A DNA stretch of 64,000 nt from Candidatus Woesebacteria bacterium RBG_16_42_24 (GTDB lineage Bacteria; Patescibacteriota; Microgenomatia; UBA8517), in the NCBI GenBank assembly GCA_001792115.1, contig MGFX01000006.1, positions 18,537 through 82,536 on the forward strand, in the 5' to 3' direction. Position numbers and translations under genes: made by a program. The notes beneath the pieces were generated by a model, which made no database searches, was not told the origin of the DNA, and saw only the letters and a list, made by a program, of their open reading frames with translations. This document shows positions 2,754-30,817 of the stretch, in pieces. How positions within the stretch are numbered: position 1 is the stretch's first letter; each line of letters starts with the position of its first letter.

Positions 2754-3980
2754 TTATTTTATAGTTACTGCGTAGAGGTTGGGGAGGGTGTCGGTAGCAC
2801 CGAGATTTGTGAGAATAATAATTCTGTCGGTAGAGAGAATCGGAAATGCGTTTGGGGTAATATACGAGCCAGAATAGACAACCTGACGGTTGGTCCCATC
2901 GTAGTCCATGATTGTTACCTTCCCTTCTTGAGCCAATACCAGGTGGCCTGAAGTTGAGAACCAGGTAAGTTTTGGAATAGAATTTCCAGTTTCCACAATT
3001 TCTGAATTGGTTACTCTATTCCAGTTTCCAATTTGGGTTTCTTCTTCCGAAATCAAAAAATTTCTGTCTTCTTTGATATCGTAAACATAAGTTCTACCCT
3101 CCTTAATATCCCTTTCTTGTTTTTGGGTTGAGGCGCCTGGGAGCTCTTTGACTACCCCCGATGGAATTATAGCCTCCGAGCTTGCCTGGTAGAGAATTTT
3201 GGTCTCATCAGGGGAGAAGGTTAAATATTTCGTTTTCCTAGTTAAAATATCGGCAATTTCGGGATGCAAGCTTTTGACTTGTGCAGCGAGTTTTAAATCA
3301 GCCTTCTTTTGCCACTCGGCAAGTAGTTCCTCTTTCTTTGTGGCGACATTTACCCTCTCCCTTTGGGGGGTGAATGTCCCCGCATCGAGCACAAAAACTC
3401 CTGTGAGTGTGGTTAGCATTATTTCCCTTCCGTCCGGAGAAAATGTCCAAGTAGCGCCTCTCAAATCGCCATCTGTAATTTGCCTTGGTTCTCGGGCAAA
3501 TCCAAGAGGAAGATTTAGAGTGTCTATGACCCAGAGACCCCCACTATCATTTCCATTTGCAACCGCTACCGAATAGGCAATTCTTCCGAAGTCGGACGAA
3601 GCAACGGGGAAAATACTTCCCGAGAAACTTACGGGTGTTAAGGAGGGGACTGACTTAAATAGATGGGCGATAGCCTCTGTAACAATTTCCTTTTGAATTT
3701 CTAACCTCTTACCCCAGGTAATATAACCCTCTTTTCTGAATTCTATATCGTAAGTGCCTGGAGAGAGCGAGATTGTTGTATCTGTTGCATTTACTAGCTC
3801 GCCATTTACAAAAACCTGGGCGCCTGATGGATCAGATTCAACCACCAAAAGGCCATTTGGGCTAAATTTAAAGGTTTTTATATCAAACCTGTAACCTCTT
3901 GCATAAAGAGATACAAAAAGTCCCAGAACGCCGACTACAATTAAGGTTATCAAAAAAACTGCAACTCTGACTTTTGTCAC
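2754..3980 (-). CDS. PEGA-domain membrane-anchored protein with a beta-propeller-like C-terminal region
   Basis: N-terminal transmembrane helix followed by a PEGA-like segment (SDPSGAQVFVNGELVNATDTTISLSPGTYDIEFRKEGY); divergent from mreB. Confidence 0.55.
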   Translation of the reverse strand: MTKVRVAVFLITLIVVGVLGLFVSLYARGYRFDIKTFKFSPNGLLVVESDPSGAQVFVNGELVNATDTTISLSPGTYDIEFRKEGYITWGKRLEIQKEIVTEAIAHLFKSVPSLTPVSFSGSIFPVASSDFGRIAYSVAVANGNDSGGLWVIDTLNLPLGFAREPRQITDGDLRGATWTFSPDGREIMLTTLTGVFVLDAGTFTPQRERVNVATKKEELLAEWQKKADLKLAAQVKSLHPEIADILTRKTKYLTFSPDETKILYQASSEAIIPSGVVKELPGASTQKQERDIKEGRTYVYDIKEDRNFLISEEETQIGNWNRVTNSEIVETGNSIPKLTWFSTSGHLVLAQEGKVTIMDYDGTNRQVVYSGSYITPNAFPILSTDRIIILTNLGATDTLPNLYAVTIK

Positions 3981-4227: not shown

Positions 4228-5235
4228 ATGTTACGAAAAAACATCGCCATTGACCTAGGCACAGCCAACACCCTTGTTTGGGTGGCTGGTGAGGGGCTTG
4301 TTGCTAACGAACCCACAGTGGTCGCAATCTCGGCCGAAGACAGTAAAGTTGTAGCCGTTGGCGAGGACGCGAAAAGGATGCTTGGTCGTACTCCGGAAAG
4401 CTTGATTGCCAGCCGTCCCATGAGGGAAGGGGTCATTGCAGATTATCAGGTGACAGAGGCGATGCTTCGCTATTTTATCGGTAAAGTCACGGGGCGTTTT
4501 CAGTTATTTAAGCCAGAAGTAATGGTTTGTGTACCAGCCGGGTGTACGCAAGTAGAAAGAAGGGCCGCGCTTGACGCGACTCTCGCCGCTGGAGCATCGC
4601 ACGCCTATCTAATAGATGAACCATTGGCAGCAGCGATAGGCGCTGGGATCCCAGTTTCTGCGCCTTCTGGACATATGATAATCGACTCCGGAGGAGGAGC
4701 GACTGAAGCTGCTGTGATTTCTTTAGGAGGAGTAGTCGTTCATAAAAGCGTAAGGATTGCTGGAAACAAGATTGATGAAGCTATTCAAGATTATCTTAAA
4801 AAGACGCACAATCTGATAGTGGGAGACCAGACCGCCGAGGACATTAAGATTAAGATAGGTTCTGCAACGACTCTTGCCAAAGAAGAAAAGCTCGAAATTT
4901 CTGGTCGCGACTTGGTCTTTGGACTCCCAAGAAGCCTGGTAATCACCTCTGGAGAGATTACCGAGGCTATAAGAGGCCCACTCATGCAGATAATTGGAGC
5001 TGTTAAGGCGGTTTTGGAAGATACTCCGCCGGAGCTTGCAGCGGATATAATAGATAAAGGAATAGTCATGAGTGGAGGCACGGGCTTACTTCGTAATTTT
5101 AACAAGCTTATGACAGAAGAAACTGGAGTTCCTGCGCACGTTGCTGAAGACCCAATGCTTTGTGTGGTAAGGGGGACAGGCTTAGTACTTGAGAATATAG
5201 AACTTTGGAAGAGGAGTGTGACAACAAAGAGGTAA
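4228..5235 (+). CDS. mreB: rod-shape-determining protein MreB (actin-like ATPase)
   Basis: N-terminus IAIDLGTANTLVW, phosphate-2 motif DSGGG, full length 335 aa. Confidence 0.9.
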   Translation: MLRKNIAIDLGTANTLVWVAGEGLVANEPTVVAISAEDSKVVAVGEDAKRMLGRTPESLIASRPMREGVIADYQVTEAMLRYFIGKVTGRFQLFKPEVMVCVPAGCTQVERRAALDATLAAGASHAYLIDEPLAAAIGAGIPVSAPSGHMIIDSGGGATEAAVISLGGVVVHKSVRIAGNKIDEAIQDYLKKTHNLIVGDQTAEDIKIKIGSATTLAKEEKLEISGRDLVFGLPRSLVITSGEITEAIRGPLMQIIGAVKAVLEDTPPELAADIIDKGIVMSGGTGLLRNFNKLMTEETGVPAHVAEDPMLCVVRGTGLVLENIELWKRSVTTKR

Positions 5236-5700
5236 AGCCCTTTTATAGGAACTAGAGGGTGCTAATTTACCCCTAAAAACCGAGGAAATACGGAAAAAAA
5301 TCATCACGGATGGTATAAATTGGGAAATTGGTGGAGTAGGAATATTCTTGATATTAGGTTGTATAGTAATTATGGTGATATCATCTACCAAGTGGATAAT
5401 TTGAGGATAAGAGAAATATCTTCCTATATAAATTTCGATGAAAAAATGTGTACAAAAAAGGCTAAATACAGGAATATTAAAAAGCATTAATATAACCTCT
5501 AGTATACGTTTTGATTAACGAGAATCAGTAAATGGGAGGAATGAAGCAGTATGAATAGACCGAATTTAACGCAATAGATATAGGATACTATATAGTACAT
5601 CATATTAAGTTATAATATAAATAGTAGTTGAGGCTAAATGACCTTAAAGACAGAAAAATCGAGTGTGATACACTAAAAAGCAAATAGAACCCAAAATAAA

Positions 5701-6591
5701 GTGTTAAAAATTGACCGAAAATACGGGAATATCCTAGGAATTAATATTAGTAGCACTCCAAGAAGCAGAGTGCTAACGTTAGTACGCTCTAGGCTCGCTA
5801 GTAAAAGAAAATTCTACATTGTTACCCCAAATCCGGAGATTGTTTTGAAAGCCGTGAGTGATAAAAGGTTGGCCAAAATTATTAATAGTGCCGACTTGGC
5901 GATCGCCGACGGGGTGGGACTTGTTCAAGCTGCTAAGTTCTTATCGATGGCTAGTCCTAAAAATAGTTTTCTAAAGATTCCTTTTTGCTTTTTTCAAGGA
6001 CTTTGGGTGGGTTTGGCGACCTTTTTGGATAAGGACTGGCTTTTTAGGGAACTAAGACCCATTAAGGGTAGGGAAATGTTTCTAGAATTAGTCAGACTTG
6101 CTAATAAGAAAGGCTGGAGGGTGTTTTTATTGGGTGGGGAACACGGGGAGGCAGAGGAGACTGCCAAAAAACTCCAAAGGAGTTATAAGGCTGTTACGTT
6201 TGCATGGCGCGAGGGGCCAATTTTTGATAAAGAAGGCCTAGCGATTTCGGCGGCGGGTCTTAATGAAGAAAAGGAGGCGGTTTATGCAATTAACGAATTT
6301 CAACCAGAGTTACTATTTGTGGCGCTTGAGACTCCAAAACAAGAGAAATGGGTTAGTAGGTGGTTGCCTAAGCTTTCAATTGGGGGAGCTATGGTTGTAG
6401 GTGGAGCTTTTAGGTATATTGCAGGGCAGGCGCCTTTACCCCCCAAATGGATGGAAGAGGTTGGCCTTGAATGGGTCTGGAGACTGATTACCGAACCTTG
6501 GAGAATAGGAAGAGTTCTAAACGCTTGGCCCATCTTCCCACTGAGGGTATTTTTGTACAAAATAACTATTGACACCCCTGAAGCTCTTTGA
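5701..6591 (+). CDS. WecB/TagA/CpsF-family glycosyltransferase (N-acetylmannosaminyltransferase-like)
   Basis: Family-typical blocks: NPE..., ADLAIADGVGLV, LGG..., WRxxxEPWR near the C-terminus; the true start may be an upstream non-ATG codon. Confidence 0.75.
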   Translation: MLKIDRKYGNILGINISSTPRSRVLTLVRSRLASKRKFYIVTPNPEIVLKAVSDKRLAKIINSADLAIADGVGLVQAAKFLSMASPKNSFLKIPFCFFQGLWVGLATFLDKDWLFRELRPIKGREMFLELVRLANKKGWRVFLLGGEHGEAEETAKKLQRSYKAVTFAWREGPIFDKEGLAISAAGLNEEKEAVYAINEFQPELLFVALETPKQEKWVSRWLPKLSIGGAMVVGGAFRYIAGQAPLPPKWMEEVGLEWVWRLITEPWRIGRVLNAWPIFPLRVFLYKITIDTPEAL

Positions 6592-6662
6592 TATCGTCTG
6601 ATTAACTTAGGTTATGCCTTAGCCTTGGGACTATAACAAATGCGACTTAAGTGATTTAAAGC

Positions 6663-6884
6663 ATGGCAGATGAAGCTAAAAAGAAAAAAGTAAAGTTGGA
6701 TGATCTTCCTGATCTTCTGACAGTCCGAGAGGTTGCAGATATATTGCGTGTTTCCCCATTAACCATCAAAAGGTGGGGCAAGCGCGGTAAGCTTCCCGCA
6801 ATCCGCATAAACTCCCGGGGAGATAGGCGCTACAAAAAAGAAGCCATCCTCTGGTTGTTAGGCATGCAAGAGAAGACTGAATAG
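6663..6884 (+). CDS. small helix-turn-helix DNA-binding protein (excisionase/MerR-like HTH_17 type)
   Basis: LTVREVADILRVSPLTIKRW is a classic Xis/MerR-type HTH; 73 aa; its 3' end is duplicated at 7757-7819. Confidence 0.55.
   Translation: MADEAKKKKVKLDDLPDLLTVREVADILRVSPLTIKRWGKRGKLPAIRINSRGDRRYKKEAILWLLGMQEKTE
6822..6884. repeat. direct repeat, copy 1 (3' end of the HTH gene); 47-nt identical core shared with 7757-7803
   Basis: gataggcgctacaaaaaagaagccatcctctggttgttaggcatgca is identical at 6822-6868 and 7757-7803; similarity continues to the gaatag stop. Confidence 0.85.
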
Positions 6885-6909
6885 ATCCAATTTGGTATAA
6901 TATGGGTGT

Positions 6910-7131
6910 ATGTCGATTGTAAAACACCTTCATAAATACTTCTGGGATATAAATCCCCGTAAGTCCAGGCCAAAGACCCATCCGAAGTTCTACATAACCA
7001 GAATATTGGAGCTTGGGGATGCGAAGGCCCTTACTTGGCTGAAAGGCGTCTTTGGAGCAAAAAAGGTGGCTAAAGTCGGAAATAAGGCCAAGCTGTCTTC
7101 GAAATCCAAGAACTTTTTGCCTTATGTTTGA
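6910..7131 (+). CDS. small partner protein of nucleotidyltransferase module 1 (putative antitoxin-like)
   Basis: 73-aa ORF; stop overlaps the downstream ATG (ATGTTTGA); shares an ILxLGDxxAxxW block with the small proteins at 29450-29707 and 29833-30123. Confidence 0.45.
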   Translation: MSIVKHLHKYFWDINPRKSRPKTHPKFYITRILELGDAKALTWLKGVFGAKKVAKVGNKAKLSSKSKNFLPYV

Positions 7132-7735
7132 GAAGGTCTTGCTCCCGGCTACCCTGGGACTGGTTAAAAAACTGACACCAGACTCGTTTCCCGAAGGTTC
7201 GTATCTGGGAGGGGGGACGGCCGTTGCTTTGCAGTTGGGCCACCGACGCTCCGCAGATTTGGACTTTTTCACCGCTTACGAATTCATCGAAAGCCAGTGG
7301 GAACAAAAACTGGCAAAGGAGCTGCGGTTTAAACTTCTAAAAAGAGACTGGCAAACTCTAATAGGAGCCTGCGGTGAGGTAAAAATATCCCTTTTTGGAT
7401 ATAAGTACCCCCTCATCGGCAAAAAAGAAAGGTTTTTTGATATGGAGGTTGCTTCGCTACCGGATCTTGCGGCGATGAAGCTGGATACCGTAATTTCAAG
7501 GGGGGCAAAGAGAGATTTAATCGATATCTACTTTCTGGCTCAAAAATTCGGCCTGGACAAACTTTTTGAATACTACGACAAGAAGTATAAAAATTTTCAG
7601 GAAAGGGAAATTATGATTAAAAAAGCCTTGGTTTACTTTGAGGAGGCCAAAGACGATGAAATGCCGGATATGCTTGTCAAGACGGATTGGGAAGAAATAA
7701 AAAGGTGGTTTAGAGAAAAAGTTTCTAAACCTTAG
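7124..7735 (+). CDS. minimal nucleotidyltransferase, AbiEii/AbiGii (DUF1814)-like, module 1
   Basis: GGTAVALQLGHRRSADLDF matches the GS-x9-13-DxD nucleotidyltransferase motif in GGTAL form; start placed at the internal ATG at 7124 by analogy with the paralogs (about 30 aa before GGT); the ORF-track start at 7052 is probably an over-extension. Confidence 0.6.
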   Translation: MFEKVLLPATLGLVKKLTPDSFPEGSYLGGGTAVALQLGHRRSADLDFFTAYEFIESQWEQKLAKELRFKLLKRDWQTLIGACGEVKISLFGYKYPLIGKKERFFDMEVASLPDLAAMKLDTVISRGAKRDLIDIYFLAQKFGLDKLFEYYDKKYKNFQEREIMIKKALVYFEEAKDDEMPDMLVKTDWEEIKRWFREKVSKP

Positions 7736-7756
7736 GCCACGCATCAATTCCTGCGG

Positions 7757-7819
7757 CGATAGGCGCTACAAAAAAGAAGCCATCCTCTGGTTGTTAGGCA
7801 TGCAGGAAAAAGTGGAATA
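7757..7819. repeat. direct repeat, copy 2 (duplicated 3' end of the HTH gene) downstream of module 1
   Basis: See copy 1; a third degenerate copy (atgcaggagaagagcgaatag) lies at 7870-7890. Confidence 0.85.
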
Positions 7820-7823
7820 GGCT

Positions 7824-7858
7824 TCTTGCCCTTCCGAAGCTCAAAGAGCGAAGGAGGG
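7824..7858. repeat. 35-nt fragment nearly identical to an internal segment of fmt (60735-60768)
   Basis: cttgcccttccgaagctcaaagagcgaaggagggt versus cttgcccttccgaagccgaaaggcgaaggagggt inside the fmt coding sequence. Confidence 0.7.
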
Positions 7859-8017
7859 TGGCTTCTAGGGATGCAGGAGAAGAGCGAATAGCCTACAGCT
7901 TTAAAAGAACAGGCTTTGCAAGGCACTTCAAAAGATGGATATAGATAGAACATAGGTAATAAATGGGTGGTTTCGGAGAATGAAGGGAATTTAAGTTCTA
8001 CAAACAGTATAAATCTT

Positions 8018-8644
8018 TCAGCGGTTTTCTTTAAATTCGCCCCTGGCTACGATTCCTTCAACGGAGAGGTCGTCAACTGATTCCAGCGACATTATTACAA
8101 AATTTTTGAATTGATTTGGGTTAGGGTTTGTGCCAACTAGAGATTCTTCGATTTGTAGAAGATAAGAGCCGTCGTCTTGTCTTAAGAGTTTTGCGAGGGG
8201 GGTTAAGCTCGACTTTTCTGCATCGCTATCTAGCCAAATCTGAAGGAAAACTCCCTCTGGTGGTTCAAAGCCCAACGGACTTATTTCAACGATCCATTCT
8301 ATTCTGTCAGCATCTATATTCCTGCTAATCTTGCCGTATTCATTTCCCGAATCAACCCCAATTAACGCGATTGTTTGAGTATTGATAGTAGAAGAGGGCT
8401 CTTCCTGCGTAACCTCCTTATTTTGAGGTTTTAAAAGGGGTATTAAGGTAATACTTAAAACGCCAGCAATCAAAATAAGAGCGATGACTAAAACTAGATA
8501 AAGAATAGTCTTCTTTTTCGACCCTTGATTATCAGGAAGCACTGGTCCGGGAATCGGAGCTGGATATGGAGATGGAACAGGAGCTGTTACTGGTGGTTGG
8601 GAAGACAATCCCTGAGAAGTATTTTGGTCTGGCAGAATATCCAT
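8018..8644 (-). CDS. hypothetical single-pass membrane protein (Pro-rich N-terminus, extracytoplasmic C-terminal domain)
   Basis: Pro-rich segment, hydrophobic helix LYLVLVIALILIAGVLSITLI, no catalytic motif. Confidence 0.45.
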   Translation of the reverse strand: MDILPDQNTSQGLSSQPPVTAPVPSPYPAPIPGPVLPDNQGSKKKTILYLVLVIALILIAGVLSITLIPLLKPQNKEVTQEEPSSTINTQTIALIGVDSGNEYGKISRNIDADRIEWIVEISPLGFEPPEGVFLQIWLDSDAEKSSLTPLAKLLRQDDGSYLLQIEESLVGTNPNPNQFKNFVIMSLESVDDLSVEGIVARGEFKENR

Positions 8645-8713
8645 ATTTGTTGATAATATGAGTTTATTTCTGGAAGAGATACTTTGTCAATAATTCAAGA
8701 TTGAGGTTTCTAG

Positions 8714-10222
8714 CTAGTCTGGTAAATCGTGATTGGATTCCCATTCTTCAAGAGATAATTTGTAGTCGTTAATCATTTTTTCCGCAATATCGAAATTAGA
8801 AAATAACAAATTGTTTTGTTCTTCCATATCTTGCGAAATATCATACAGCTCGAGAGGTTTATGAGTATCCTTTTCGGAGTTTAATATAAGTTTCCAATTT
8901 TTCCATACTATCGCCTTATTTTTGGCTCCATCGCCATTGATAATTAGTTGGCGATCTTCAAGTTGGTTGCCCTTAAGAACCTCTACCAGGCTTTTGCCTT
9001 GAAATTTATATTTTTCATTAATTCCGACTATATCTAATATTGTTGGGGGGAGATCAGTAAGTTGGACAGAATCGGACACTACTACTTTTTTCATGTCGGG
9101 AATGTACATGATAAAAGGAATCCGGATATTTGAATTGTATATAGTAATGTGGGTTATTTCTCCGTGTTCTGCAAACTCTTCACCGTGCTCGGCGCTAATT
9201 ATTAAAATTGTATTATTCTTTAGCGATTCGTCGTTGATAAATGAAATTAGTGCTTCTATGGCCGATTCGTCTAGTTCATGAATTCTTTGATCGTAGAGAG
9301 CTTTTATGTATTCAATATGTCTTTTGTTATTAACGTCAATTTTTTGGTTCCAGTTAAACCACTGTATATAACTCGAGAGTGAAGTCGCCAAGTCTGTATC
9401 TAGAACTTCCTGATAATACTGCTTAAGAGCCGGATAGTTGTTCTTATTTCTATCGATAAATTCCAAAAATTCCTTTAACTTGCCCGACTCCGTCCTTCCC
9501 GATTTAATATCCTGCGGTATTTGCACAGACAAATATTCAAAAAATTCTTCCGAGGGATTAGCTAAAACATCCCCAAACGTGTGCGGGATTTCCGGAACAT
9601 TATCTGAGGTATAAATCTTTGGTCTGTCTTCGGTTAAATAGGGGGCATGGACTGAATAATCATTAACATATAAAAAAGTCTTCTTACCAGCTTTGACATT
9701 TTCCTTAAATTCTTCGAATAGGTTCTTCCAGGGATATTCGTTTAAATACTTATCTATGCCACGATTAAGCGCGTTTTTGACAGGTATTGCAGGATTTTCT
9801 AAAGGTACTCCAAAAAGCGTTGTATAGCCGTTTTTCTGTAAAATCTGTGGCAGAAAAGGCGTGTTCCCATTTAAGACGTCATTATAGGTTATTACTTTAT
9901 GTGTTTCAGGATATAGTCCGGTAAATTCGGAGACCGACGAAGGTAGAGTCCAAAACGAGTTTGAGTACGCATTAGCGAAACGGATATTCTCTTGCGCAAA
10001 CTTGCAGAGGTTGGGCGCAGTATTCCTGGGGTAGCCGTAGCAAGGCAGGTGTTTTGCGCTTAAAGTATCCAAAGAAATCCATACGATATTACAATCTTTG
10101 CATAAAGGGTTTTGTTTTTTTATCTGTCTTAAAATAAATGAGCCGGCAAAATAGGAAGCAAGCAATATGCATCCTAAAATAAAGAAAGGTTTGATTATTT
10201 TTTTAAAGCGTATGATACTCAC
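8714..10222 (-). CDS. sulfatase-like hydrolase/transferase (alkaline-phosphatase superfamily, LTA-synthase-like)
   Basis: N-terminal transmembrane helix; WISLDTLSAKHLPCYGY metal-site-like block; AEHGEEFAEHGE... near the C-terminus. Confidence 0.65.
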   Translation of the reverse strand: MSIIRFKKIIKPFFILGCILLASYFAGSFILRQIKKQNPLCKDCNIVWISLDTLSAKHLPCYGYPRNTAPNLCKFAQENIRFANAYSNSFWTLPSSVSEFTGLYPETHKVITYNDVLNGNTPFLPQILQKNGYTTLFGVPLENPAIPVKNALNRGIDKYLNEYPWKNLFEEFKENVKAGKKTFLYVNDYSVHAPYLTEDRPKIYTSDNVPEIPHTFGDVLANPSEEFFEYLSVQIPQDIKSGRTESGKLKEFLEFIDRNKNNYPALKQYYQEVLDTDLATSLSSYIQWFNWNQKIDVNNKRHIEYIKALYDQRIHELDESAIEALISFINDESLKNNTILIISAEHGEEFAEHGEITHITIYNSNIRIPFIMYIPDMKKVVVSDSVQLTDLPPTILDIVGINEKYKFQGKSLVEVLKGNQLEDRQLIINGDGAKNKAIVWKNWKLILNSEKDTHKPLELYDISQDMEEQNNLLFSNFDIAEKMINDYKLSLEEWESNHDLPD

Positions 10223-10228
10223 ATTAGT

Positions 10229-10852
10229 ATGAGAAAAAGCGGGAAAATAATGGTCCTTTTGATTTTGATAGTAATCGGTTTAGTCTACTTTACCATAAAA
10301 AACTCAGCCTGTTTTGAGCTGGATTGTATTTACTTTCCGGGAAAAGAGAACTGGAAACTTGTGGAGATCTATGAAAATTCTGAAAAAGCATGGAAAGGTC
10401 TTTTTGGAATTGAAGACGGATATGTAAGAGTCGAAAAAAAGGTTGTCGATTCTTCCCAATACGCAGGGGAATTTACGAATACACGCCTTATGCAGGTGCA
10501 AAGTATTTTTGATAAGGCCCGCTCTCCTTATCCTGGTGCAATTTCAGATGAAATCGAATGCCAAGAAAAGTTTAAACCAGTTGAAAAAGAAATAACCACC
10601 AGTAGAGGAATGACACTAACCTACTATCGCGAATATCTTAATAATCGCCTTGCCATAGGGACGTGTTTAGACGAAGATGTCGAATATGTAGGATATGTAG
10701 CAATATTTTATTGTTCTGAATCCTCCGAGTGGTATCAGATGGAAATAATAAAGCCGTCTGAAAAAAGGGGATTGGAAGAAGATTATATTTCTCTTTTTAA
10801 AGAGATTAGATGTCAACGACCGTTCTCGAAAATGGGTAAGCTTTTACCCTGA
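10229..10852 (+). CDS. hypothetical membrane-anchored protein
   Basis: N-terminal hydrophobic helix; no recognisable motif. Confidence 0.4.
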   Translation: MRKSGKIMVLLILIVIGLVYFTIKNSACFELDCIYFPGKENWKLVEIYENSEKAWKGLFGIEDGYVRVEKKVVDSSQYAGEFTNTRLMQVQSIFDKARSPYPGAISDEIECQEKFKPVEKEITTSRGMTLTYYREYLNNRLAIGTCLDEDVEYVGYVAIFYCSESSEWYQMEIIKPSEKRGLEEDYISLFKEIRCQRPFSKMGKLLP

Positions 10853-19902: not shown

Positions 19903-21312
19903 ATGAAGAATGTTTTAAAAATTATTTATCCGGAATCTTGGATATATGCCATAATTTTTTGTCTGTCGCTATTTGCGACCGATAATTTTTTTTTCCTGCT
20001 AATAGTAATTTCTTTACTTTTTTATCTCAAATTTACCCGCAGTTTATTTAATTCATTATGGTTTTTATTCATTTCGTCAATGCTTTCTTTGAGAACACTA
20101 CCTTTTGATATAAATTTTATTGCACCTATACTGAATATTAATGGAGATGGTAGCTGGTACTACTCGGACCTTATTTTTGTTTTAATTCTTGGTCTCACAC
20201 TTACTGGGTTCAATAAAAACAGAATAAAGGTCTTATTCAGCGGGACCTGGGGTATTAAAGCAGACTTTTTTTTGTTTTTATTTCTGGCTATAGCAGGCTA
20301 TTCGACCATCATCGCTTCAAATCCAACAATTTCCTTCTCATTCTACTTTTTATTAGCAAAATCGGTAATTCTTTATTTGGTATCCAAATTAGTATTTTTA
20401 GACCTAAATCTGGTCAAGAAAACCATGCAGATAGTAATTGTCTATGTGGTGATAAATTCTTTATTGATTATCACCCAATACTTGGTTAGAGGTCCTTTGG
20501 GCTTTGATTTTGAAGATGCGTTTATGCCTTTCGGAAAGTATGCAGAGAACTATCTATTCAGGCCCGGAGGTTTTAGCTCAGATCCCAATATCTCTGCGAG
20601 TTTTATAGTTGTTATTTTACCGGTAGCGGTAGTTATGTTTCTTCCACTTTTAAAAAAGGCCGCCGTATATTATTGGGGATTTATAGTATCGATTTTTTTG
20701 GCCCTAATATTTACGGCAAGTAGGGCCTCCTGGATAATAACCGCGGTTGCGATTTTGCCTTTTTTGATCTATTTAAAGTCTAATAATTTTATTTTTTTAC
20801 CGAAAAAACTTAAGGCCCTTTGGGTATTGGGATCTATCTCGCTCATTATTATAATAGGGCCGTTTATTTTTTCCAGGATTCTGTCTTTGGATCAGACATT
20901 CAGTCAGGTAGGAAGCGGCTATTATCGGATTCATCAGGCGGTAGCTGGATATCGGATAATGTTTAATAATCCATTCGGCGTAGGATTGGGGATGTTCCCC
21001 TATGAGGTCATGAAATCTGTTTCAGATGAAAATTCGCCAACTACTTTTGATTTACCTCATAATTTGTTTGTACAATTGGGGGCAGAAAGTGGCATTGCGG
21101 GTCTGATTATCTTTTTGGTTTTCTTGTATTTTTTATATAAAGACAAGTTTATAAATGGTATGCTAAAGCCAAACGTTTTTTCGGGTGCCATGATTATTTC
21201 CTTTGTGTCAATGAGTTTACTTATGCTCGCGTATCCTTGGTTATTGCACCCGAGAATCGGTTGGATATTTTGGCTCTTGGCGGGTTATTCTGGCAGATGG
21301 AAAAGCTACTAA
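19903..21312 (+). CDS. O-antigen ligase/polymerase-like polytopic membrane protein
   Basis: Ten or more transmembrane segments with a central TASRASWI loop block (Wzy_C-like). Confidence 0.55.
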   Translation: MKNVLKIIYPESWIYAIIFCLSLFATDNFFFLLIVISLLFYLKFTRSLFNSLWFLFISSMLSLRTLPFDINFIAPILNINGDGSWYYSDLIFVLILGLTLTGFNKNRIKVLFSGTWGIKADFFLFLFLAIAGYSTIIASNPTISFSFYFLLAKSVILYLVSKLVFLDLNLVKKTMQIVIVYVVINSLLIITQYLVRGPLGFDFEDAFMPFGKYAENYLFRPGGFSSDPNISASFIVVILPVAVVMFLPLLKKAAVYYWGFIVSIFLALIFTASRASWIITAVAILPFLIYLKSNNFIFLPKKLKALWVLGSISLIIIIGPFIFSRILSLDQTFSQVGSGYYRIHQAVAGYRIMFNNPFGVGLGMFPYEVMKSVSDENSPTTFDLPHNLFVQLGAESGIAGLIIFLVFLYFLYKDKFINGMLKPNVFSGAMIISFVSMSLLMLAYPWLLHPRIGWIFWLLAGYSGRWKSY

Positions 21313-22109
21313 AAAAATTATCCGTTTTAGACTATGTCGTTTTTATAGTCGTTGTCGTGGTGATTGTCGGATTTTTTGTTTTTTATTCGAGGGAAAATGT
21401 TACGGTATACGTGTCTACCGTAAACGAGTGGTCGGAGTGGCTGGAAGATCCAATGCCTCCGCCGTACTGGCTTTCAAATGCCCTTAAAGTCGGAGACAAA
21501 GCATTTCATACATCCGGGGGGGAATTGGCAGAAATTATCGGAATAGAAAATACTGATTGGGGCGGACAGAGAAGATTTTCCAGACTAAATCTTAAGGTAA
21601 AAGCCTTATATAATGTTCGCTCAAAAGTTTATTTGTTAAAAGAACAGCCCCTGATTGTGGGAGGGACCCTAACTCTTAACTTTAAAGGCGTTCAATATCA
21701 AGGCGTCATAACCTATATTGGTACTACGCCCGAGTTCCCGGAAAGCAAGCTGTCCAAGGCAAGGGTAGAAGTATTTATTCCCGAAGTTTATCCTTGGCTG
21801 GCCGAAACTTACAACAAAGACTATGTTGTAAAAGATACCAACGGATTGAAAATATTTAGAATAATATCTTCCAGGATTATTCCTGCCGAAAGGTCGATTG
21901 TAACCGATGACGGACGGATACTAAGAAGGTCGGACCCTTACTACAAGGACGTTTATTTTATCGCCGAAGCGCAGGTCAGGTGCCAGGAGGGGACATGCTA
22001 CTATAACGATACATTTCCTTTAAGGATAGGTGCACATATTAGAATCCATTCAACTTCCAGCTTAGTCGAAGAAAAAGCTATTATAAAAAATTATGAAATT
22101 TTGGACTGA
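21297..22109 (+). CDS. hypothetical membrane-anchored protein
   Basis: Start set at the internal ATG overlapping the upstream stop; N-terminal transmembrane helix FIVVVVVIVGFFVF. Confidence 0.4.
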   Translation: MEKLLKKLSVLDYVVFIVVVVVIVGFFVFYSRENVTVYVSTVNEWSEWLEDPMPPPYWLSNALKVGDKAFHTSGGELAEIIGIENTDWGGQRRFSRLNLKVKALYNVRSKVYLLKEQPLIVGGTLTLNFKGVQYQGVITYIGTTPEFPESKLSKARVEVFIPEVYPWLAETYNKDYVVKDTNGLKIFRIISSRIIPAERSIVTDDGRILRRSDPYYKDVYFIAEAQVRCQEGTCYYNDTFPLRIGAHIRIHSTSSLVEEKAIIKNYEILD

Positions 22110-22138
22110 TCTTACAATAAGCACCCGCATTACAACTC

Positions 22139-23281
22139 GTGACTGATACTATATTTTTCATATTTCATGACTTGGGGATAGGAGGTGTTCAGAGGAAAAT
22201 AGTTGACAGCATAAGGTTATTAAGAAAAGACCCATACTTTTCAAAAAAAGGATTCAAAATAATCGTTTTGTTGGAAGACGAAAAAGCTTACGACCTAGAA
22301 GAAGACATTTTTTTGGAAGATATCGAAGGTCCCAAGTGTGAAGTTTACTATTACAGATCAAAAAAAGATATTGATTTTTCGACTTTCCATATTCCCTTTA
22401 CCGTTTTTGTTTTATGGAAAATATTAATTTTTAAACCCTCAAGAGTTGTTGCTTTTATGGAGCCGTATGCCGCCTCTGCAATTATCGGCAAATTAGTATC
22501 GAAGATATTTTGGCGCGGGTACACAAAGGTAATAATAAGCTTTGACAATGTAGCCACCTCTCTTTTAAAACTTGAATATGGCAGAAATTGGAGATATTTC
22601 TATTGGACCTTTTTAATTAAGAATTTATTTAGATTTGCCGACAGGGTTATTGTGCCCTCTGATTTTTCCAAGTCGGACTTGGTAAATAATTTCCGCCTGC
22701 CTAATGAAAAAATTGTTGTCAATAAAAACTGGGTTTTAATTCCTAAGAAAATGGAACGTCGTTTCCTGAAATACGACCTTTTATATGTTGGTAGGGTGGA
22801 CAGGGTTAAGAATCTTAAATTATTTGTAGATACCGTAAGAGAGCTTCGAGGCAGGGTGCCGAATATTCGCGGCTGCATTGTCGGGTGGGGAGACGAGATG
22901 GAAAACATACTGCATTATATTAATTCTAAAAAAATGGGGGGTAACATAGAAATGGTAGGTTCCCGGAGAGATGTCGGATTTTATTATTCTAGTTCAAAAA
23001 TATTTTTAATAACGTCGGACTTTGAAGGATTGCCGATTGTTGGTCTGGAAGCAATGTCCTGGGGACTACCAGTTGTTTCCAAAGATTATCCGGGGGCAGG
23101 TGAGTTGATAAAAGACGCCAAAAGCGGATATGTCTGCAACAAAAAGCAATTGACGGAAAGAATTTTAAAATTGCTTCACGATACCGCAAAACGCGAGGCC
23201 ATGGGAAAATATGCAAGAGATTATGTCAGAAAAAATCACGGCGCTAAGTCTTTAAGAGATTTTGTTAAGGAAATTATTTGA
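22139..23281 (+). CDS. glycosyltransferase family 4 (GT-B, group 1)
   Basis: EGLPIVGLEAMSWGLPVV, i.e. the EX7E region. Confidence 0.8.
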   Translation: MTDTIFFIFHDLGIGGVQRKIVDSIRLLRKDPYFSKKGFKIIVLLEDEKAYDLEEDIFLEDIEGPKCEVYYYRSKKDIDFSTFHIPFTVFVLWKILIFKPSRVVAFMEPYAASAIIGKLVSKIFWRGYTKVIISFDNVATSLLKLEYGRNWRYFYWTFLIKNLFRFADRVIVPSDFSKSDLVNNFRLPNEKIVVNKNWVLIPKKMERRFLKYDLLYVGRVDRVKNLKLFVDTVRELRGRVPNIRGCIVGWGDEMENILHYINSKKMGGNIEMVGSRRDVGFYYSSSKIFLITSDFEGLPIVGLEAMSWGLPVVSKDYPGAGELIKDAKSGYVCNKKQLTERILKLLHDTAKREAMGKYARDYVRKNHGAKSLRDFVKEII

Positions 23282-26655: not shown

Positions 26656-27804
26656 TTGATAAAAAAATTTAGCCCGGAGAAAATTACAAACCTTCTAATA
26701 TTAATTCTATTCGGGACGCTTCTAATCTTTGGAGGATTGGGGATTAACGCCTTACTCGCAGCCCAAATTGGACTCGTATTGGGTTTTTTAATTATTCTCT
26801 GGGTTTATTTGAAAAACCATAAAATCGAATTCCCAAGGGGTAGCCTGCTCTACCTTATTTTTCTCTTCTTTTTTGCAGCAAGCGTTCTTTGGGCAGATCA
26901 AAAGAGTCTTATCTGGCAGAATTTTCTTTTATTTTTAGTTGGAGGAGTTTTTTGGCTGGGGTTTCATAACTTGGGCCAAAAGTTTAAGAAGATTTTTTTT
27001 TGGCTAGTAATTTTTTTGGGAGCAGTCTTTGGTATGCTTTTTTTGGCTGAGCAGGTACTTCCGGGAAATGCCTTAAAGCCCTATACACTCTATTTGCCGG
27101 TGGGTTTCCAGCGAAACCACAACCACCTGGGCGACCTTTGGGCGCTTACTCTTATTGCACTTACCTATCTTTTTGTCAAAGAAAGGAAATGGTGGAATCT
27201 GCCCCTAGGGGTTCTGGGGATTTATTTTTTGGGAGTATCCCTTTCCCGCTCTGCCTACGCCTCGTTACTGGTGGGACTAACTTATCTTTTTTATCAATTC
27301 GGGTGGCTAAAAAAATTCAAAAGTATCTTCCTCGCCCTTTTGGCAATCACCGCAGGCCTTTTTCTTTACGCGGGCAGCTTAAAGTCGGTACTTTCTTCGC
27401 GGCCTTATTTTGTACAGGCTATAAGGGGACTGTCTAAATATCCCTTCGGGGTCGGGGTGGGGAACTTTTCAGTCATTTCGACCGATCCACAAATAGCCGG
27501 GGAGGGTGCGAAACATTTTTCCTCTCTTACCCATAATTTAATTTTGGAAATAACCACCGGTTTGGGGATATTTGGGTTTGTCTTTATCGCCTGGCTTATC
27601 TTTATAGTCAAGGACTTACTTTCTTCTAAGAGGGGAGGCGAGACTGGCGTTTTTGAGGCTATATTTTTTGCCCTACTTGCCAATTTTATGTTTGATTATA
27701 CCTATGTTATTCCGACCATGCTTTGGTTGTGGTTTACCATGCTTGGGCTAGCTCAGGCAGGAAACCTATTCCCCGCCTTGACACAAAATAATAAAGAGCC
27801 GTAA
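26656..27804 (+). CDS. O-antigen ligase family membrane protein
   Basis: Polytopic; VSLSRSAYASLLVGL block (Wzy_C); paralog of 31619-32746; its last ~45 nt are repeated three more times downstream. Confidence 0.65.
   Translation: MIKKFSPEKITNLLILILFGTLLIFGGLGINALLAAQIGLVLGFLIILWVYLKNHKIEFPRGSLLYLIFLFFFAASVLWADQKSLIWQNFLLFLVGGVFWLGFHNLGQKFKKIFFWLVIFLGAVFGMLFLAEQVLPGNALKPYTLYLPVGFQRNHNHLGDLWALTLIALTYLFVKERKWWNLPLGVLGIYFLGVSLSRSAYASLLVGLTYLFYQFGWLKKFKSIFLALLAITAGLFLYAGSLKSVLSSRPYFVQAIRGLSKYPFGVGVGNFSVISTDPQIAGEGAKHFSSLTHNLILEITTGLGIFGFVFIAWLIFIVKDLLSSKRGGETGVFEAIFFALLANFMFDYTYVIPTMLWLWFTMLGLAQAGNLFPALTQNNKEP
27715..27761. repeat. att-like 47-nt sequence, copy 1 (native 3' end of the O-antigen-ligase gene)
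   Basis: accatgctttggttgtggtttaccatgcttgggctagctcaggcagg; three further copies at 28608, 29763 and 30770. Confidence 0.8.
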
Positions 27805-27805
27805 G

Positions 27806-28570
27806 ATGAATCATTCCCTCCCTAGCATGCGGAAACGTTACCTGCATAAATCGCAAACCGGTCTGGTTGGCTTTCTCCCCATTTTAGTTTTAGGAGTACT
27901 TACCATTTCTATAATCATGCTTTCTTCATATTTGAGTAGAGAGGGAGTGTCGTTTGATATTAGGGAACAAGCCGTGTATGAGCAGATCTGTCCCGGATCG
28001 GTGAGTGCTTATCCTAGCTCGTGTGTTGTTACAGAAGGAGCTACGGCACCCTGCCAAGATATTAAGATATCTTGGGATTTTCCCGGCTGTCAAAATGTGA
28101 CGGTAGATGGGACGGGGGTTGGTATTCCGGGTGGCCCTTTGGCCTATGGAAACTCAGGGTCGTTTTTCACTGACGTTTATCCTCCGGGGGCCGACTTTTA
28201 CTTTTACGCAAATGCGGGCTCCGACCAAATAAACCATTTAAGAGTAAATGCTAGACACCAATCCACCAGTAGTCCGGATGGGGAGATTAGAGTTAGCCCC
28301 CGACCTTGTCAAATTTGTTCGGGTGGAGGTTTGTCAGCAACTTGTACCGTGAGAGTAGAATGGAGCATCTGGAATGCTAAGAAGCCGAGGGTAATGATTA
28401 AACTTGCTGGTTTACCCAAAACAGAATGGGATAATAAGACGACTGGAGTTTCTGAGTATGAACTCAGAAATAATACTCTCTTCAAGTATGTTTGGTTTGG
28501 GGTGTACGACGGATATACATTATTGGACTCAGCAGACTCTTTTATAGAGTATGTGGGTTGTAATGGATAA
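27806..28570 (+). CDS. hypothetical membrane-anchored/secreted protein (first cassette)
   Basis: N-terminal transmembrane helix; Cys-containing extracytoplasmic domain; bounded by att-like copies 1 and 2. Confidence 0.45.
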   Translation: MNHSLPSMRKRYLHKSQTGLVGFLPILVLGVLTISIIMLSSYLSREGVSFDIREQAVYEQICPGSVSAYPSSCVVTEGATAPCQDIKISWDFPGCQNVTVDGTGVGIPGGPLAYGNSGSFFTDVYPPGADFYFYANAGSDQINHLRVNARHQSTSSPDGEIRVSPRPCQICSGGGLSATCTVRVEWSIWNAKKPRVMIKLAGLPKTEWDNKTTGVSEYELRNNTLFKYVWFGVYDGYTLLDSADSFIEYVGCNG

Positions 28571-28607
28571 ATAAGCACTCCAAAGGATACTGCTTACACA
28601 ATTTCCA

Positions 28608-28654
28608 ACCATGCTCTGGCTTTGGTTTACGAGTCTGGGATTATCCAGGCTCGG
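28608..28654. repeat. att-like sequence, copy 2
   Basis: accatgctctggctttggtttacgagtctgggattatccaggctcgg. Confidence 0.75.
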
Positions 28655-28745
28655 GTCAGACTTGGGTGAACCATGAGCTTGGGGCTGGGACAGGAAGACT
28701 AAAGCCACCTTTAAAGGCTGGTCCTTTATAGGAGCATTCAAGAAA

Positions 28746-28836
28746 ACCCCGATTTATTCGGAGATGGATTGAACGCTCATATGTCATCCTCGTTTAGACG
28801 AGGAAACCGCGGACTTAAGTCCGCGGAGGATGTCAT
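28746..28836. ncRNA. conserved multi-hairpin structured element, copy 1 (function unknown: small RNA, ssDNA recombination site or terminator)
   Basis: Conserved arms ggaGATGgATTGAACGCTcATATGTCATCCTC and GGAGGATGTCATA enclose three hairpins (ccga-tttat-tcgg; cctcgt-ttag-acgagg; ccgcggactt/aagtccgcgg) that differ from copy 2 by compensatory changes. Confidence 0.45.
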
Positions 28837-28845
28837 AAGGAACTA

Positions 28846-29466
28846 CTATTTCTGAAGACTTATTTCTGCCAAAAACTCCTTAATTTCACTGTCGTCCTTC
28901 TTATGGCCACTTAAATAATCTATCCTTTCCGAATAGTCTAGATCATCAAAATAAGACAGCTGTTCTCTGAAAAGTTTCTCATTAAACTCTTTTTTGAAAA
29001 TCTCCCTGGCTTTATTTATAACTTCATTTATAGTGTGTTTTTTAAATGCGAAAAATAAATCCACATAGTCCTTCCATTTGGCTCTTCTTCCCAGAGAATA
29101 GGCTTTCATAGAGGCGAGTGTAAGTATATCCGGCATGTTAATAAACTCTCCGAGCCTTTCTCTAAATTCAATCGTAAAGGGGAACTTTAAGAAGGTAAGT
29201 TTGACCGATGCCACAACGACCGTTAGTTCGTTCATTTCATCGACAAGAGTACTTTCTATGGGGTGAAGACCTCTTATTGAATTTGCTATTTTTTCATTAT
29301 TAATAGCCTCAAGGGAAGCCAAATCAAAATCAACCGACCTTCTATGTCCAATCTGGAGAGCCATTGCAGTGCCGCCAACTAATCCGAATTTATCCGAGAA
29401 CTTAGTGATAATCGGAAGAAGCAGCCTTTGTCCTTCCGATAAAACCTCTTCATGCATATTTTGCAA
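28846..29466 (-). CDS. minimal nucleotidyltransferase, AbiEii/DUF1814-like, module 2
   Basis: GGTAMALQIGHRRSVDFDL; paralog of 7124-7735 and 30101-30739 at about 35-40% identity. Confidence 0.6.
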   Translation of the reverse strand: MQNMHEEVLSEGQRLLLPIITKFSDKFGLVGGTAMALQIGHRRSVDFDLASLEAINNEKIANSIRGLHPIESTLVDEMNELTVVVASVKLTFLKFPFTIEFRERLGEFINMPDILTLASMKAYSLGRRAKWKDYVDLFFAFKKHTINEVINKAREIFKKEFNEKLFREQLSYFDDLDYSERIDYLSGHKKDDSEIKEFLAEISLQK

Positions 29467-29707
29467 AATAATTTTGGAAGTAATTTAGCGTACGCTTTTT
29501 TAAATTTACCCTTTTACCCCTCTTTATTTCTTCAAAAAGAGATTTCATTTTGGAAATACCCAAAACTTTCTCGGCTTCCATAACGTCACCCCAGTCGCCA
29601 TAGGACAGAATGTGTTCCAGGGCGCTTTTGTCAGATAAAGCCTTTTTGTCCTTGATATACCAGGCTAAATATGGCTTCCCCTCTAATATTTTTTGAAGCA
29701 TACTCAT
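29450..29707 (-). CDS. small partner protein of nucleotidyltransferase module 2
   Basis: 85 aa; overlaps the downstream nucleotidyltransferase by 17 nt; ILSYGDWGDV...LNYFQNYF matches the module-3 small protein VLNLGDREAV...LNFWQKIL. Confidence 0.45.
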   Translation of the reverse strand: MSMLQKILEGKPYLAWYIKDKKALSDKSALEHILSYGDWGDVMEAEKVLGISKMKSLFEEIKRGKRVNLKKRTLNYFQNYFAKYA

Positions 29708-29762
29708 ATATTATATCAACTAAGTGGGAAGCAAGCTTAAAGCGTAAGTGCCGAAAGCGATT

Positions 29763-29809
29763 ACAATGCTTTGGTTGTGGTTTGTCAGCTTGGGTCTTTC
29801 TCAGAGAAA
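29763..29809. repeat. att-like sequence, copy 3 (between divergent modules 2 and 3)
   Basis: acaatgctttggttgtggtttgtcagcttgggtctttctcagagaaa. Confidence 0.75.
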
Positions 29810-29832
29810 TGATTTAAGGTAAAATATGGTAT

Positions 29833-30123
29833 ATGAGCGTGCCTAAATTCTTACAACCCTATTTAGCTTCGTATGATTTGTCAAAGTTAGACAAAGATAG
29901 TAAGGCCGTGCGGGAAGAGATTATTACCCAGGTTCTTAATTTGGGTGACAGGGAAGCTGTCGGGTGGGTTTTTGATAATTATAATATGGACCAGGTTAGA
30001 GATGTTCTGAAAAAGCCAAAACGTGGTTTATGGTTTGAAGAATCTCTTAATTTTTGGCAAAAAATACTTGGCATTGAAGCCAAAGATTCACTAAATAAAG
30101 ATGCCATATTTACAAATCCTTAA
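29833..30123 (+). CDS. small partner protein of nucleotidyltransferase module 3
   Basis: 96 aa; overlaps the downstream nucleotidyltransferase by 23 nt. Confidence 0.45.
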   Translation: MSVPKFLQPYLASYDLSKLDKDSKAVREEIITQVLNLGDREAVGWVFDNYNMDQVRDVLKKPKRGLWFEESLNFWQKILGIEAKDSLNKDAIFTNP

Positions 30124-30739
30124 TGATAGGCAGTTGGACTTGATTAAGGGTCTGGACTTCCTTGGCGGAGAAGTTTACTTGGCGGGGGGCACCGGTTTGG
30201 CTCTACAGCTTGGTCATAGAACGTCGCTTGATTTTGATTTCTACTCCAAAATTCGTTTTGATCCTCAACTGCTGGCTGCTTCGTTTCAGGAAAAGTCTAA
30301 AGACTTAAAAATTAATAGTATTGTCAAAGATACGCTTATTCTTACCGTCGATGGTGTAAGTTTTTCTCTTTTTTATTACCCTTATAAGATGATAGGAAAG
30401 AAGGTTAAAGTGGAGAGTATAAATGTGGCTTCTATTCAGGATATTGCCGCAATGAAGCTGGTTGCGGTTGCCATGAGGGGAAAAAGAAGAGATTTTATTG
30501 ACATTTATTATCTATTGAAAAAATATTCTCTTAAAGACCTTTTGGGTTTTGTAAAGACAAAATATCCTTCGTTTGAAGAGATGATGGTTCTTAAGGGACT
30601 GATTTATTTTGAAGATGCAGAAGACGAAGACCTGGCGAGGGGGATAAAAGTTCTTGCTAAACACTTTTCCTGGGAAGACGCCAAGAAAAAAATTCTTCAA
30701 GAAGTTAAGCGCTACCAGCTTGCGATAATTAGAAAGTGA
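30101..30739 (+). CDS. minimal nucleotidyltransferase, AbiEii/DUF1814-like, module 3
   Basis: GGTGLALQLGHRTSLDFDF. Confidence 0.6.
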   Translation: MPYLQILNDRQLDLIKGLDFLGGEVYLAGGTGLALQLGHRTSLDFDFYSKIRFDPQLLAASFQEKSKDLKINSIVKDTLILTVDGVSFSLFYYPYKMIGKKVKVESINVASIQDIAAMKLVAVAMRGKRRDFIDIYYLLKKYSLKDLLGFVKTKYPSFEEMMVLKGLIYFEDAEDEDLARGIKVLAKHFSWEDAKKKILQEVKRYQLAIIRK

Positions 30740-30769
30740 TGGTTTTTTGACTGAACCTACTTTATCTAT

Positions 30770-30817
30770 ACGATGCTTTGGCTGTGGTTTACCATGCTTG
30801 GGGTTAGCTCAGGGTGG
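30770..30817. repeat. att-like sequence, copy 4
   Basis: acgatgctttggctgtggtttaccatgcttggggttagctcagggtgg. Confidence 0.75.

Follow-up and report, generated by a model that had tools for sequence, protein, structure and literature searches.

Stacked tails of a BldC-like regulator gene frame a putative toxin-antitoxin cassette inserted in a Woesebacteria genome

In a 64,000-nucleotide (nt) stretch of contig MGFX01000006.1 from Candidatus Woesebacteria bacterium RBG_16_42_24, hereafter the window, a two-gene module lies directly behind the gene of a small helix-turn-helix (HTH) regulator and is followed by two further copies of the end of that gene. The insert measures 855 nt (about 0.86 kb), and its only genes are a DUF6922 gene and a gene for an AbiEii-family nucleotidyltransferase. 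We refer to the three gene ends as T2 (the functional tail), T1 (the displaced tail behind the module) and T0 (the presumably oldest displaced tail, further downstream; Table 1). On our best reading, recombination has struck the 3' end of a conserved single-copy regulator gene at least twice, and the locus is the resulting scar. For the arrival of the module we favor homology-guided insertion-duplication by a cassette lacking a recombinase, a mechanism to which we give an even chance of being right.

T2 and T1 form a direct repeat in which 70 of 81 nt are identical (BLAST E 3e-20). All 11 mismatches sit in the flanks of an exact 47-nt core, with a flank divergence of roughly 30%; given 11 mismatches in 81 nt, a mismatch-free run of this length has a probability of 0.0003 by permutation and of 0.002 at the codon level. 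T0 matches T2 at 26 of 33 nt. An earlier note on this DNA, made from the sequence alone, had placed the repeat at 6822-6884 and 7757-7819. Its 47 nt of identity are real, but it misplaced the second copy by one base, and the similarity extends 18 nt further to the left. The third, degenerate copy that it reported at 7870-7890 exists as well and is in fact longer. Comparison of the window with itself by BLASTN recovered both the HTH repeat and a match to fmt that is considered below, and Pfam confirmed the earlier gene calls of an HTH_17/MerR gene, a DUF6922 gene and an AbiEii nucleotidyltransferase gene.

The repeat arrangement is not an assembly artefact, because 13 contigs of separate ENA/JGI assemblies carry the identical region. 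Where they overlap positions 5000-10500 they are 99.9-100% identical to the window, and both repeat copies are present in every contig that reaches both. Proteins identical to those of the window carry source names including RBG_19FT_COMBO_42_9 and RIFCSPLOWO2_01_FULL_43_11. At one locus (L009), an apparently different neighbour after the HTH gene was a gene-calling difference only, the DNA being identical to that of the window.

Because the next-closest Woesebacteria keep the gene order PEGA-MreB-WecG-HTH without the module, the DUF6922-AbiEii module is evidently an insertion. In three of these relatives (L015-L017; HTH 95% identical), the HTH gene is followed by 70 bp and then by a convergent gene of 209 amino acids (aa). 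In other siblings the DNA after the HTH stop codon holds a GT2 gene (L018), a GT4 operon (L019-L021, L033-L036) or a Y1 transposase gene (L037-L040). As siblings thus carry different genes after the HTH stop, this position is, by comparison, a breakpoint. None of the nine sibling contexts has a DUF6922-AbiEii pair, and each has a single HTH gene with no second tail. The earlier note had read the module as an insertion leaving duplicated gene ends and had proposed looking for a module-free HTH locus in siblings; such loci are found in L015-L017, and the sibling HTH tail there matches the third copy, T0, at 32 of 33 nt. The note had also considered that all siblings might share the arrangement. 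It is identical in the 13 same-strain contigs and absent from the next-closest Woesebacteria. Positions 7892-8017 are not alignable to siblings, and the 208-aa neighbour has no homologue beyond its own cluster, so the right junction has no empty-site alignment. Matches resembling LLGMQEK inside a glycosyltransferase gene of L019-L036 were set aside as having chance E-values.

The Y1 transposase gene of L037-L040 (about 3250-3940) encodes 227-228 aa of IS200/IS605-type or RAYT-like character, is convergent and lies about 28-34 nt past the HTH stop. Because it adjoins that stop, the end of the HTH gene may be a hotspot for other mobile DNA too.

The HTH protein matches the TIGR01764 excisionase domain with 31.7 bits (cut-off 28.8) and HTH_17 with 42.4 bits. 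Its nearest solved structures are 6AMK and 6AMA (E 8e-9), which we take to be BldC. The BldC subfamily model NF033787 scores 43.8 bits, below its cut-off of 77, and we call the protein BldC-like, a resemblance that stops short of demonstrated membership in the BldC family. There are 6652 homologues, and among the best 120 most are 85-97% identical, across many Woesebacteria/Patescibacteria. The left flank PEGA-MreB-WecG-HTH is kept in nine of nine sibling contexts examined, with no integrase near the HTH gene in siblings. The HTH gene was ruled out as a third gene of the module, an HTH homologue being adjacent to DUF6922-AbiEii cassettes in none of 11 homologous loci elsewhere. Because of the conserved synteny, the thousands of homologues and the cassettes elsewhere without it, we regard the HTH gene as a conserved, syntenic core regulator of Woesebacteria and hence as the target of the insertion, not its cargo. 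The earlier note had taken the Xis/MerR-like type of the protein as a sign of an integrative element; an excisionase domain does match, but the synteny, the abundance of homologues and the lack of a nearby integrase speak against that view.

The cassette is most readily understood as a toxin-antitoxin (addiction) pair. The putative toxin matches PF08843 with 50.4 bits (cut-off 22.5), and its translation holds GGG..R..DLD (LGGGTAVALQLGHRRSADLD), K..R (MKLDTVISR) and RDLID, corresponding to motifs I-IV of Dy et al. 2014 (PMC3985639). The upstream 73-aa DUF6922 protein, the putative antitoxin or partner, has no AbiEi match in Pfam or PADLOC, and a literature search found nothing on DUF6922. DUF6922 always precedes AbiEii in homologous loci. 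Here the two genes overlap by 8 nt (7124-7131) and share one -10 box in front of the first gene; its distance from the ATG implies a near-leaderless transcript. The box was missed by a two-hexamer promoter scan. A layout of TATAAT-N6-9-ATG is common to 11 homologous cassettes, and because all of them have TATAAT 6-9 nt before the first ATG, the mobile unit would span its own -10 box to the stop codon of the second gene. GC content was rejected as a foreign mark, the cassette having 43.6% and the window 41.4%.

The differences among the tails are mostly synonymous. T2 and T1 differ by six synonymous and two non-synonymous codons, with frame and stop kept, and T2 and T0 by four synonymous and one non-synonymous. 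T0 matches the sibling tails of L015 at 32 and of L019 at 31 of 33 nt, and functional T2 matches these at only 25-26. A neutral relic cannot stay near-unchanged while the selected T2 gains seven silent changes in 11 codons; for this reason T0 and T2 must have evolved in separate lineages while both still served as functional tails, and have come together afterwards. T2, T1 and T0 are thus tails of different alleles that inter-lineage recombination has joined. Over six repeat pairs, 22 synonymous and 13 non-synonymous codon differences were counted, no indel was found, and every displaced tail keeps its in-frame stop. The similarity ends exactly at the stop codon in T2/T1, L025 and L027, and 2 nt beyond it in L030, a boundary that fits a surrogate coding tail. 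The simple target duplication of the earlier note does not hold, as the copies are allelic versions with synonymous-biased differences. Allelic tails argue against target-site duplication in place and favor recombination with DNA that already carried a tail copy.

The same architecture recurs at other targets. Among homologous cassettes (AbiEii 40-72% identical; Levyibacteria and other lineages), several are also flanked by direct repeats. At L025, L027/L028, L029 and L030 the repeat is the coding tail of the host gene, the displaced copy retains its stop, and the start of the right-hand copy falls between -2 and +24 nt relative to the AbiEii stop. L029 (27-452 and 1316-1369) has a DUF6922-AbiEii cassette (61% at the aa level) in the fmt tail, within the Formyl_trans_C domain, and the displaced fmt tail comes after the cassette. 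The repeats at the HTH, fmt, deacetylase and Wzy-like tails have no sequence in common. By our count, 6 of 17 independent AbiEii cassettes have a repeat abutting the stop codon. In a control run with one script this was so for 7 of 130 genes, three of which were AbiEii genes and four others.

Within the window, an array at 26656-32746 (26.6-32.8 kb) contains three cassettes, of which two are AbiEii modules, interspersed with three copies of the tail of a Wzy-like gene. Two more repeats bound genes of other kinds. A 115-nt direct repeat (36864-36978 / 37524-37638; 95.7%) encloses a DUF5674 gene (36965-37294) and a 75-aa open reading frame (ORF; 37291-37518). It comprises the end of the upstream Big_2 gene, a promoter in the intergenic DNA and 14 nt (MIVY) from the start of a histidine phosphatase gene; as it holds the start of the latter, the inserted gene appears to borrow that gene's start. 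Between tRNA-Trp and rpmG, a repeat of about 40 nt (57598-57639 / 58045-58084; 93%) bounds a 131-aa TrpR-like gene (57659-58054, minus strand), including its start codon. On other contigs of the candidate phyla radiation (CPR), a repeat abuts the stop codon of a sulfatase gene (L022, 382-408/1902-1928), a 418-aa ORF (L032, 3746-5002) and a 176-aa ORF (L043, 4977-5507). In view of these non-toxin cases, tail-bounded insertion seems not to be restricted to toxin-antitoxin cargo.

Table 1. Features of the HTH locus, the Wzy-like array, the second motif copy and homologous cassette loci (positions refer to the window)
Feature	Position	Strand	Description
HTH target gene	6663-6884	+	73-aa MerR/excisionase-type regulator, BldC-like; Pfam HTH_17/MerR_1, TIGR01764 domain
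T2, functional HTH tail, left repeat copy	6804-6884	+	encodes ...RINSRGDRRYKKEAILWLLGMQEKTE-stop
47-nt identical core	6822-6868 (= 7758-7804)	+	candidate crossover or conversion tract
Left end of insert, 25-nt spacer	6885-6909	+	extended -10 box TGGTATAAT at 6893-6901, 8 nt before ATG; read from sequence
DUF6922 gene	6910-7131	+	73 aa; putative antitoxin/partner; Pfam PF21956, 36.2 bits
AbiEii-family nucleotidyltransferase gene	7124-7735	+	203 aa; putative toxin; Pfam PF08843; PADLOC AbiEii models
Spacer, 4 nt	7736-7739	+	GCCA, between AbiEii stop and T1
T1, displaced HTH tail	7740-7820	+	last 27 codons; encodes ...RINSCGDRRYKKEAILWLLGMQEKVE-stop; begins 4 nt past AbiEii stop
Spacer T1-T0, 38 nt	7821-7858	+	holds bipartite motif CCCTTCCGAAGC-N7-GCGAAGGAGGGT
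T0, presumed oldest displaced tail	7859-7891	+	last 11 codons, 33 nt; WLLGMQEKSE-stop
Intergenic DNA, 126 nt	7892-8017	.	ends at convergent 208-aa gene
Orphan membrane-protein gene	8018-8644	-	208 aa; convergent
Array gene A	26656-27804		Wzy-like; tail ...TMLWLWFTMLGLAQ (TMLWLWF..LGL..Q)
Array ORF	27806-28570		
Array tail copy 1	28608-28649		
Array AbiEii module 2, inverted	28846-29466 plus 29450-29707	-	
Array tail copy 2	29763-29804		
Array AbiEii module 3	29833-30123 plus 30101-30739		
Array tail copy 3	30746-30811		begins 7 nt past AbiEii module 3 stop
Array ORF	30877-31557		
Array gene B	31619-32746		paralogue of gene A
Second window copy of bipartite motif	60735-60768	+	antisense within fmt, codons for WTLLRLSASEGQA, variable loop
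Homologous locus L025			30-nt repeat, 93%; host gene tail without assigned name
Homologous locus L027/L028			63-nt repeat, 87%; tail of convergent polysaccharide deacetylase gene
Homologous locus L029			54-nt repeat, 78%; fmt tail
Homologous locus L030			33-nt repeat; host gene tail without assigned name

The mechanism that we favor, homology-guided insertion-duplication, would proceed as follows. In the latest event, a minimal addiction cassette, reaching from its own -10 box through DUF6922 and AbiEii to 4 nt past the stop, would have landed within the final 27 codons of the HTH gene, bringing along a second version of this tail that stems from another Woesebacteria lineage. As the two copies are different alleles, one of them probably travels with the cassette. 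In its most economical form, the entering DNA may have been a circle of about 0.94 kb (936 bp) composed of the tail copy, 25 nt, the two genes and 4 nt, with an expected junction of AbiEii stop-GCCA-tail-ATCCAATTT.... Such a circle could arise when the repeats around an earlier insertion recombine with each other, and would presumably be taken up by transformation. A single Campbell-type homologous crossover in the 47-nt core, probably dependent on RecA, would integrate it, rebuilding an intact HTH gene (T2) and pushing the previous tail (T1) downstream of the cassette, and an earlier event at the same spot would have displaced T0. The geometry at the locus is that of intact gene, cassette and displaced tail, with both copies looking like donor/recipient chimeras around an identical core, which is exactly what a single crossover between the chromosome and a "tail + cassette" circle would produce. 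The toxin-antitoxin pair may then penalise loss by repeat-mediated excision. With repeated rounds, tails could pile up (as at the HTH gene) or arrays of cassettes with tail copies between them could grow (as at the Wzy-like gene). Because a repeat-flanked cassette can yield a circle via its own repeats, the structure might spread by itself through related genomes that have the same target gene.

Several points weigh against this mechanism. We saw no sign of a donor, a circular form, an excised allele or tandem amplification, and only about one third of the homologous cassettes show repeats. An identity of 47 nt is short for efficient RecA recombination. The origin of the tail-plus-cassette unit still needs an unexplained illegitimate event, and a trans-acting recombinase could be encoded elsewhere in the genome, beyond the 64-kb window. 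While T0 resembles L015, nucleotide identity to L015 over the remainder of the locus is only about 80%, and no tail is singled out as native. Among the best 120 HTH homologues, none ends in ...QEKVE.

Alternatively, the module could be a remnant or non-autonomous passenger of a site-specific element that carried a surrogate tail and targeted the HTH 3' end, with its integrase supplied in trans or deleted. An identical core between diverged arms does resemble attL/attR, the surrogate tail ends at the stop codon, the stack of displaced tails is reminiscent of tandem accretion at att sites, and the Y1 transposase gene 28 nt past the HTH stop in L037-L040 indicates that mobile DNA visits the spot. 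We nevertheless hold site-specific integration to be unlikely. A scan of the 0.86-kb insert and of about 40 further window ORFs found no integrase or transposase, the genes lie too close to the repeats for arm-type sites to fit between them, and the homologous cassettes share no att core. As the HTH, fmt, deacetylase and Wzy-like repeats are unrelated, a single recombinase specificity cannot explain them.

Improbable to a further degree is a long target duplication in situ, in which a staggered double-strand break or a replication-based event would have duplicated the 81 nt as a linear cassette entered, the copies diverging later. This class has been described for restriction-modification units, and the repeats at 36864-36978 and 37524-37638, 95.7% identical and spanning non-coding DNA, would fit a young duplication. 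At the HTH gene, however, the mismatches are clustered and not spread, and T0 is near-identical to the sibling allele of L015, from which the functional tail differs at 8 of 33 sites. In addition, frame and stop are intact in every displaced tail, and 63% of the differences are synonymous, compared with about 40% if one copy were neutral and about 25% at random by our estimate. We consider it very improbable that two or three full HTH genes once stood in tandem and that cassettes or deletions left only the tails of the downstream copies. The tails do retain coding character, and the 26.6-32.8 kb array does have a full paralogue, gene B, downstream. Yet in all nine sibling contexts there is one HTH gene and no extra tail, the right-hand tail invariably lies within a few bases of the AbiEii stop, and four unrelated targets in other lineages would each require the same coincidence.

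Insertion with long target duplication is known from restriction-modification units (Nobusato et al. 2000; Furuta, Abe & Kobayashi 2010, PMC2853133; reviewed by Mruk & Kobayashi 2014, PMC3874152). These units have no mobility genes, their repeats measure about 30-400 bp and often overlap gene 3' ends, and an invade-amplify-release cycle has been proposed for them (PMC2853133; PMC3874152). Furuta et al. 2010 looked for presence or absence between relatives, repeats of >30 bp that are single copy in the empty genome, an insert of <20 kb without a mobility gene and restriction-modification cargo; most examples from their repeat-flanked screen came from naturally competent species (PMC2853133). 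Similarly, the module described here is present in the window and in 13 same-strain contigs and absent from L015-L017, its 81-nt repeat corresponds to a single HTH tail in siblings, and its 855-nt insert has no mobility gene. By contrast, its cargo is DUF6922-AbiEii and not a restriction-modification unit, its host is a CPR bacterium, its repeat copies are diverged alleles with a synonymous bias and not near-identical duplicates, and its tails form a stack of three and, at another place in the window, separate the cassettes of an array. The allelic and stacked copies therefore point to a tail borne by the cassette.

Phage 21 and e14 at icd, and islands at tRNA and tmRNA genes, integrate in the 3' end of their target, carry a surrogate end that differs mainly silently and displace the original tail. 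The HTH locus shares with them the reconstituted conserved gene, the displaced tail and the possibility of tandem accretion, but it has no integrase, measures only 0.86 kb, and the target tails differ wholly between homologous cassettes. Campbell-type insertion-duplication is a laboratory technique in naturally transformable bacteria that uses a non-replicating circle with a short homologous segment. It leaves the same succession of an intact upstream copy, an insert and a second copy of the homologous segment, both copies being chimeric. Here, however, the event would be natural, the homology is 30-115 nt, and the circle is conjectural. Integron cassettes are mostly promoter-poor. Like integron arrays, those described here consist of small cassettes, often toxin-antitoxin, placed head-to-tail at one site with a repeated recombination sequence between them; unlike them, the separators are coding tails of host genes, and the cassettes carry their own -10 box. 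No integrase domain occurs in the scanned ORFs; the search for intI and attC included no dedicated attC or IntI model.

With regard to cargo, AbiE is a type IV toxin-antitoxin and abortive infection system with a DUF1814/AbiEii Pol-beta-type nucleotidyltransferase (motifs I-II hG[G/S]x~15DhD with Arg, III K..R, IV +DxxD), and it occurs on mobile DNA, which it stabilises (Dy et al. 2014, PMC3985639). The module is likewise an overlapping two-gene operon whose second gene encodes a DUF1814/AbiEii nucleotidyltransferase with motifs I-IV. It differs from AbiE in that its first gene encodes a 73-aa DUF6922 protein and not a COG5340 winged-helix AbiEi of roughly 200-300 aa.

The insertion scar is genuine and of a known general kind, and new are the allelic, stacked gene tails and their recurrence across targets and lineages. 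A literature search found no description of toxin-antitoxin cassettes with long target duplication. The locus would extend this 25-year-old, mechanistically unexplained class from restriction-modification units to toxin-antitoxin cassettes. In CPR/Patescibacteria, whose genomes are roughly 1 Mb in size and contain few mobile elements that can be recognised, the acquisition of accessory and defence genes is poorly understood. Our results suggest that a cassette may not need to bring its own recombinase in order to enter such tiny genomes, and they offer a testable acquisition route in which gene tails serve as landing pads, host recombination stands in for an integrase and toxin-antitoxin addiction ensures retention. 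Displaced gene tails could also serve as a simple sequence signature of recent insertions in metagenome-assembled genomes. A more far-reaching possibility, which we consider less likely than not, is that CPR bacteria host a recombinase-free, homology-guided system. Its units of about 0.5-1 kb, carrying toxin-antitoxin or other genes, would mimic the last 10-30 codons of a conserved host gene, circularise via their repeats, spread between lineages, probably by natural transformation, and re-integrate by single crossover in the tail of that gene. They would thereby build integron-like arrays in which displaced tails act as attC and the cargo enforces retention. If this were true, the T2/T1/T0 stack and the Wzy-like three-cassette array would be two records of one tail-guided cassette process.

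The spacer between T1 and T0 has a history of its own. The earlier note had described it as a transplanted fragment of fmt. The similarity is real, positions 7825-7859 matching 60735-60768 at 32 of 35 nt with one 1-nt gap (E 4.5e-5 in the whole-window self-BLAST), antisense to fmt (60586-61536, minus strand). The transplantation is not established, as the motif also occurs in alaS of another contig and the segment within fmt has a native look. What is conserved is a bipartite motif of CCCTTCCGAAGC, 5-7 variable nt and GCGAAGGAGGGT. Identical 12+12-nt arms with a different loop occur antisense in alaS of the unrelated CPR contig L042 (2440-2468), for which we estimate a chance expectation of about 1e-5. 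In an alignment of 14 Fmt homologues and the L029 fmt fragment, the motif segment is a length-variable loop, and the closest homologue has LLRQGFGGQA, of similar length, at this place. The fmt segment was rejected as an inserted element, there being no clean insertion in the Fmt alignment.

The spacer could be filler copied from the window's own fmt at an illegitimate junction, a possibility that we place somewhat below an even chance. Both the 32 of 35 nt match and the native look of the fmt segment agree with this origin, which leaves the copy in L042 alaS unexplained. That copy, with its identical arms and different loop, would instead be expected if the spacer were a copy of a short dispersed element. 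Against a dispersed element stand the number of firm copies, only three (HTH spacer, fmt and L042 alaS), and the outcome of a motif scan of 2.9 million viral contigs (IMG/VR), which gave zero matches. Furthermore, positions 7821-7858 fold no better than shuffled sequence (z-scores about 0 on both strands), with no Rfam match and no terminator-like site in the spacer; a hairpin, a terminator and a known RNA were rejected on these grounds. Weaker motif matches at 52602 (the RNase HII start, found by eye) and at L044 2169 were at chance level. The L029 cassette also sits in an fmt gene, in its tail, a different part of the gene from the spacer match, and we regard this as coincidence.

Two regions of the window, 53296-54764 (1.5 kb) and 21312-22139 (0.8 kb), have no ORF of at least 90 aa and no Rfam family at the gathering threshold. 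A 117-nt repeat (28726-28837 / 59178-59290; 76-79%) adjoins AbiEii module 2 with one copy and tRNA-Thr(tgt) with the other, and matched no Rfam family. Its outer inverted repeat ATGTCATCCTC...GAGGATGTCAT is conserved and its inner hairpins change in a compensating manner (CCGCGGACTTAAGTCCGCGG vs CCCCACACTTTCAGTGTGGGG), which suggests a structured element. A stand-alone 81-aa GIY-YIG ORF (58389-58634) abuts tRNA-Thr(ggt). A 40-nt partial copy of tRNA-Tyr (58811-58850 / 58903-58942) is located 92 nt away from the gene; it may represent an ancient att-like scar.

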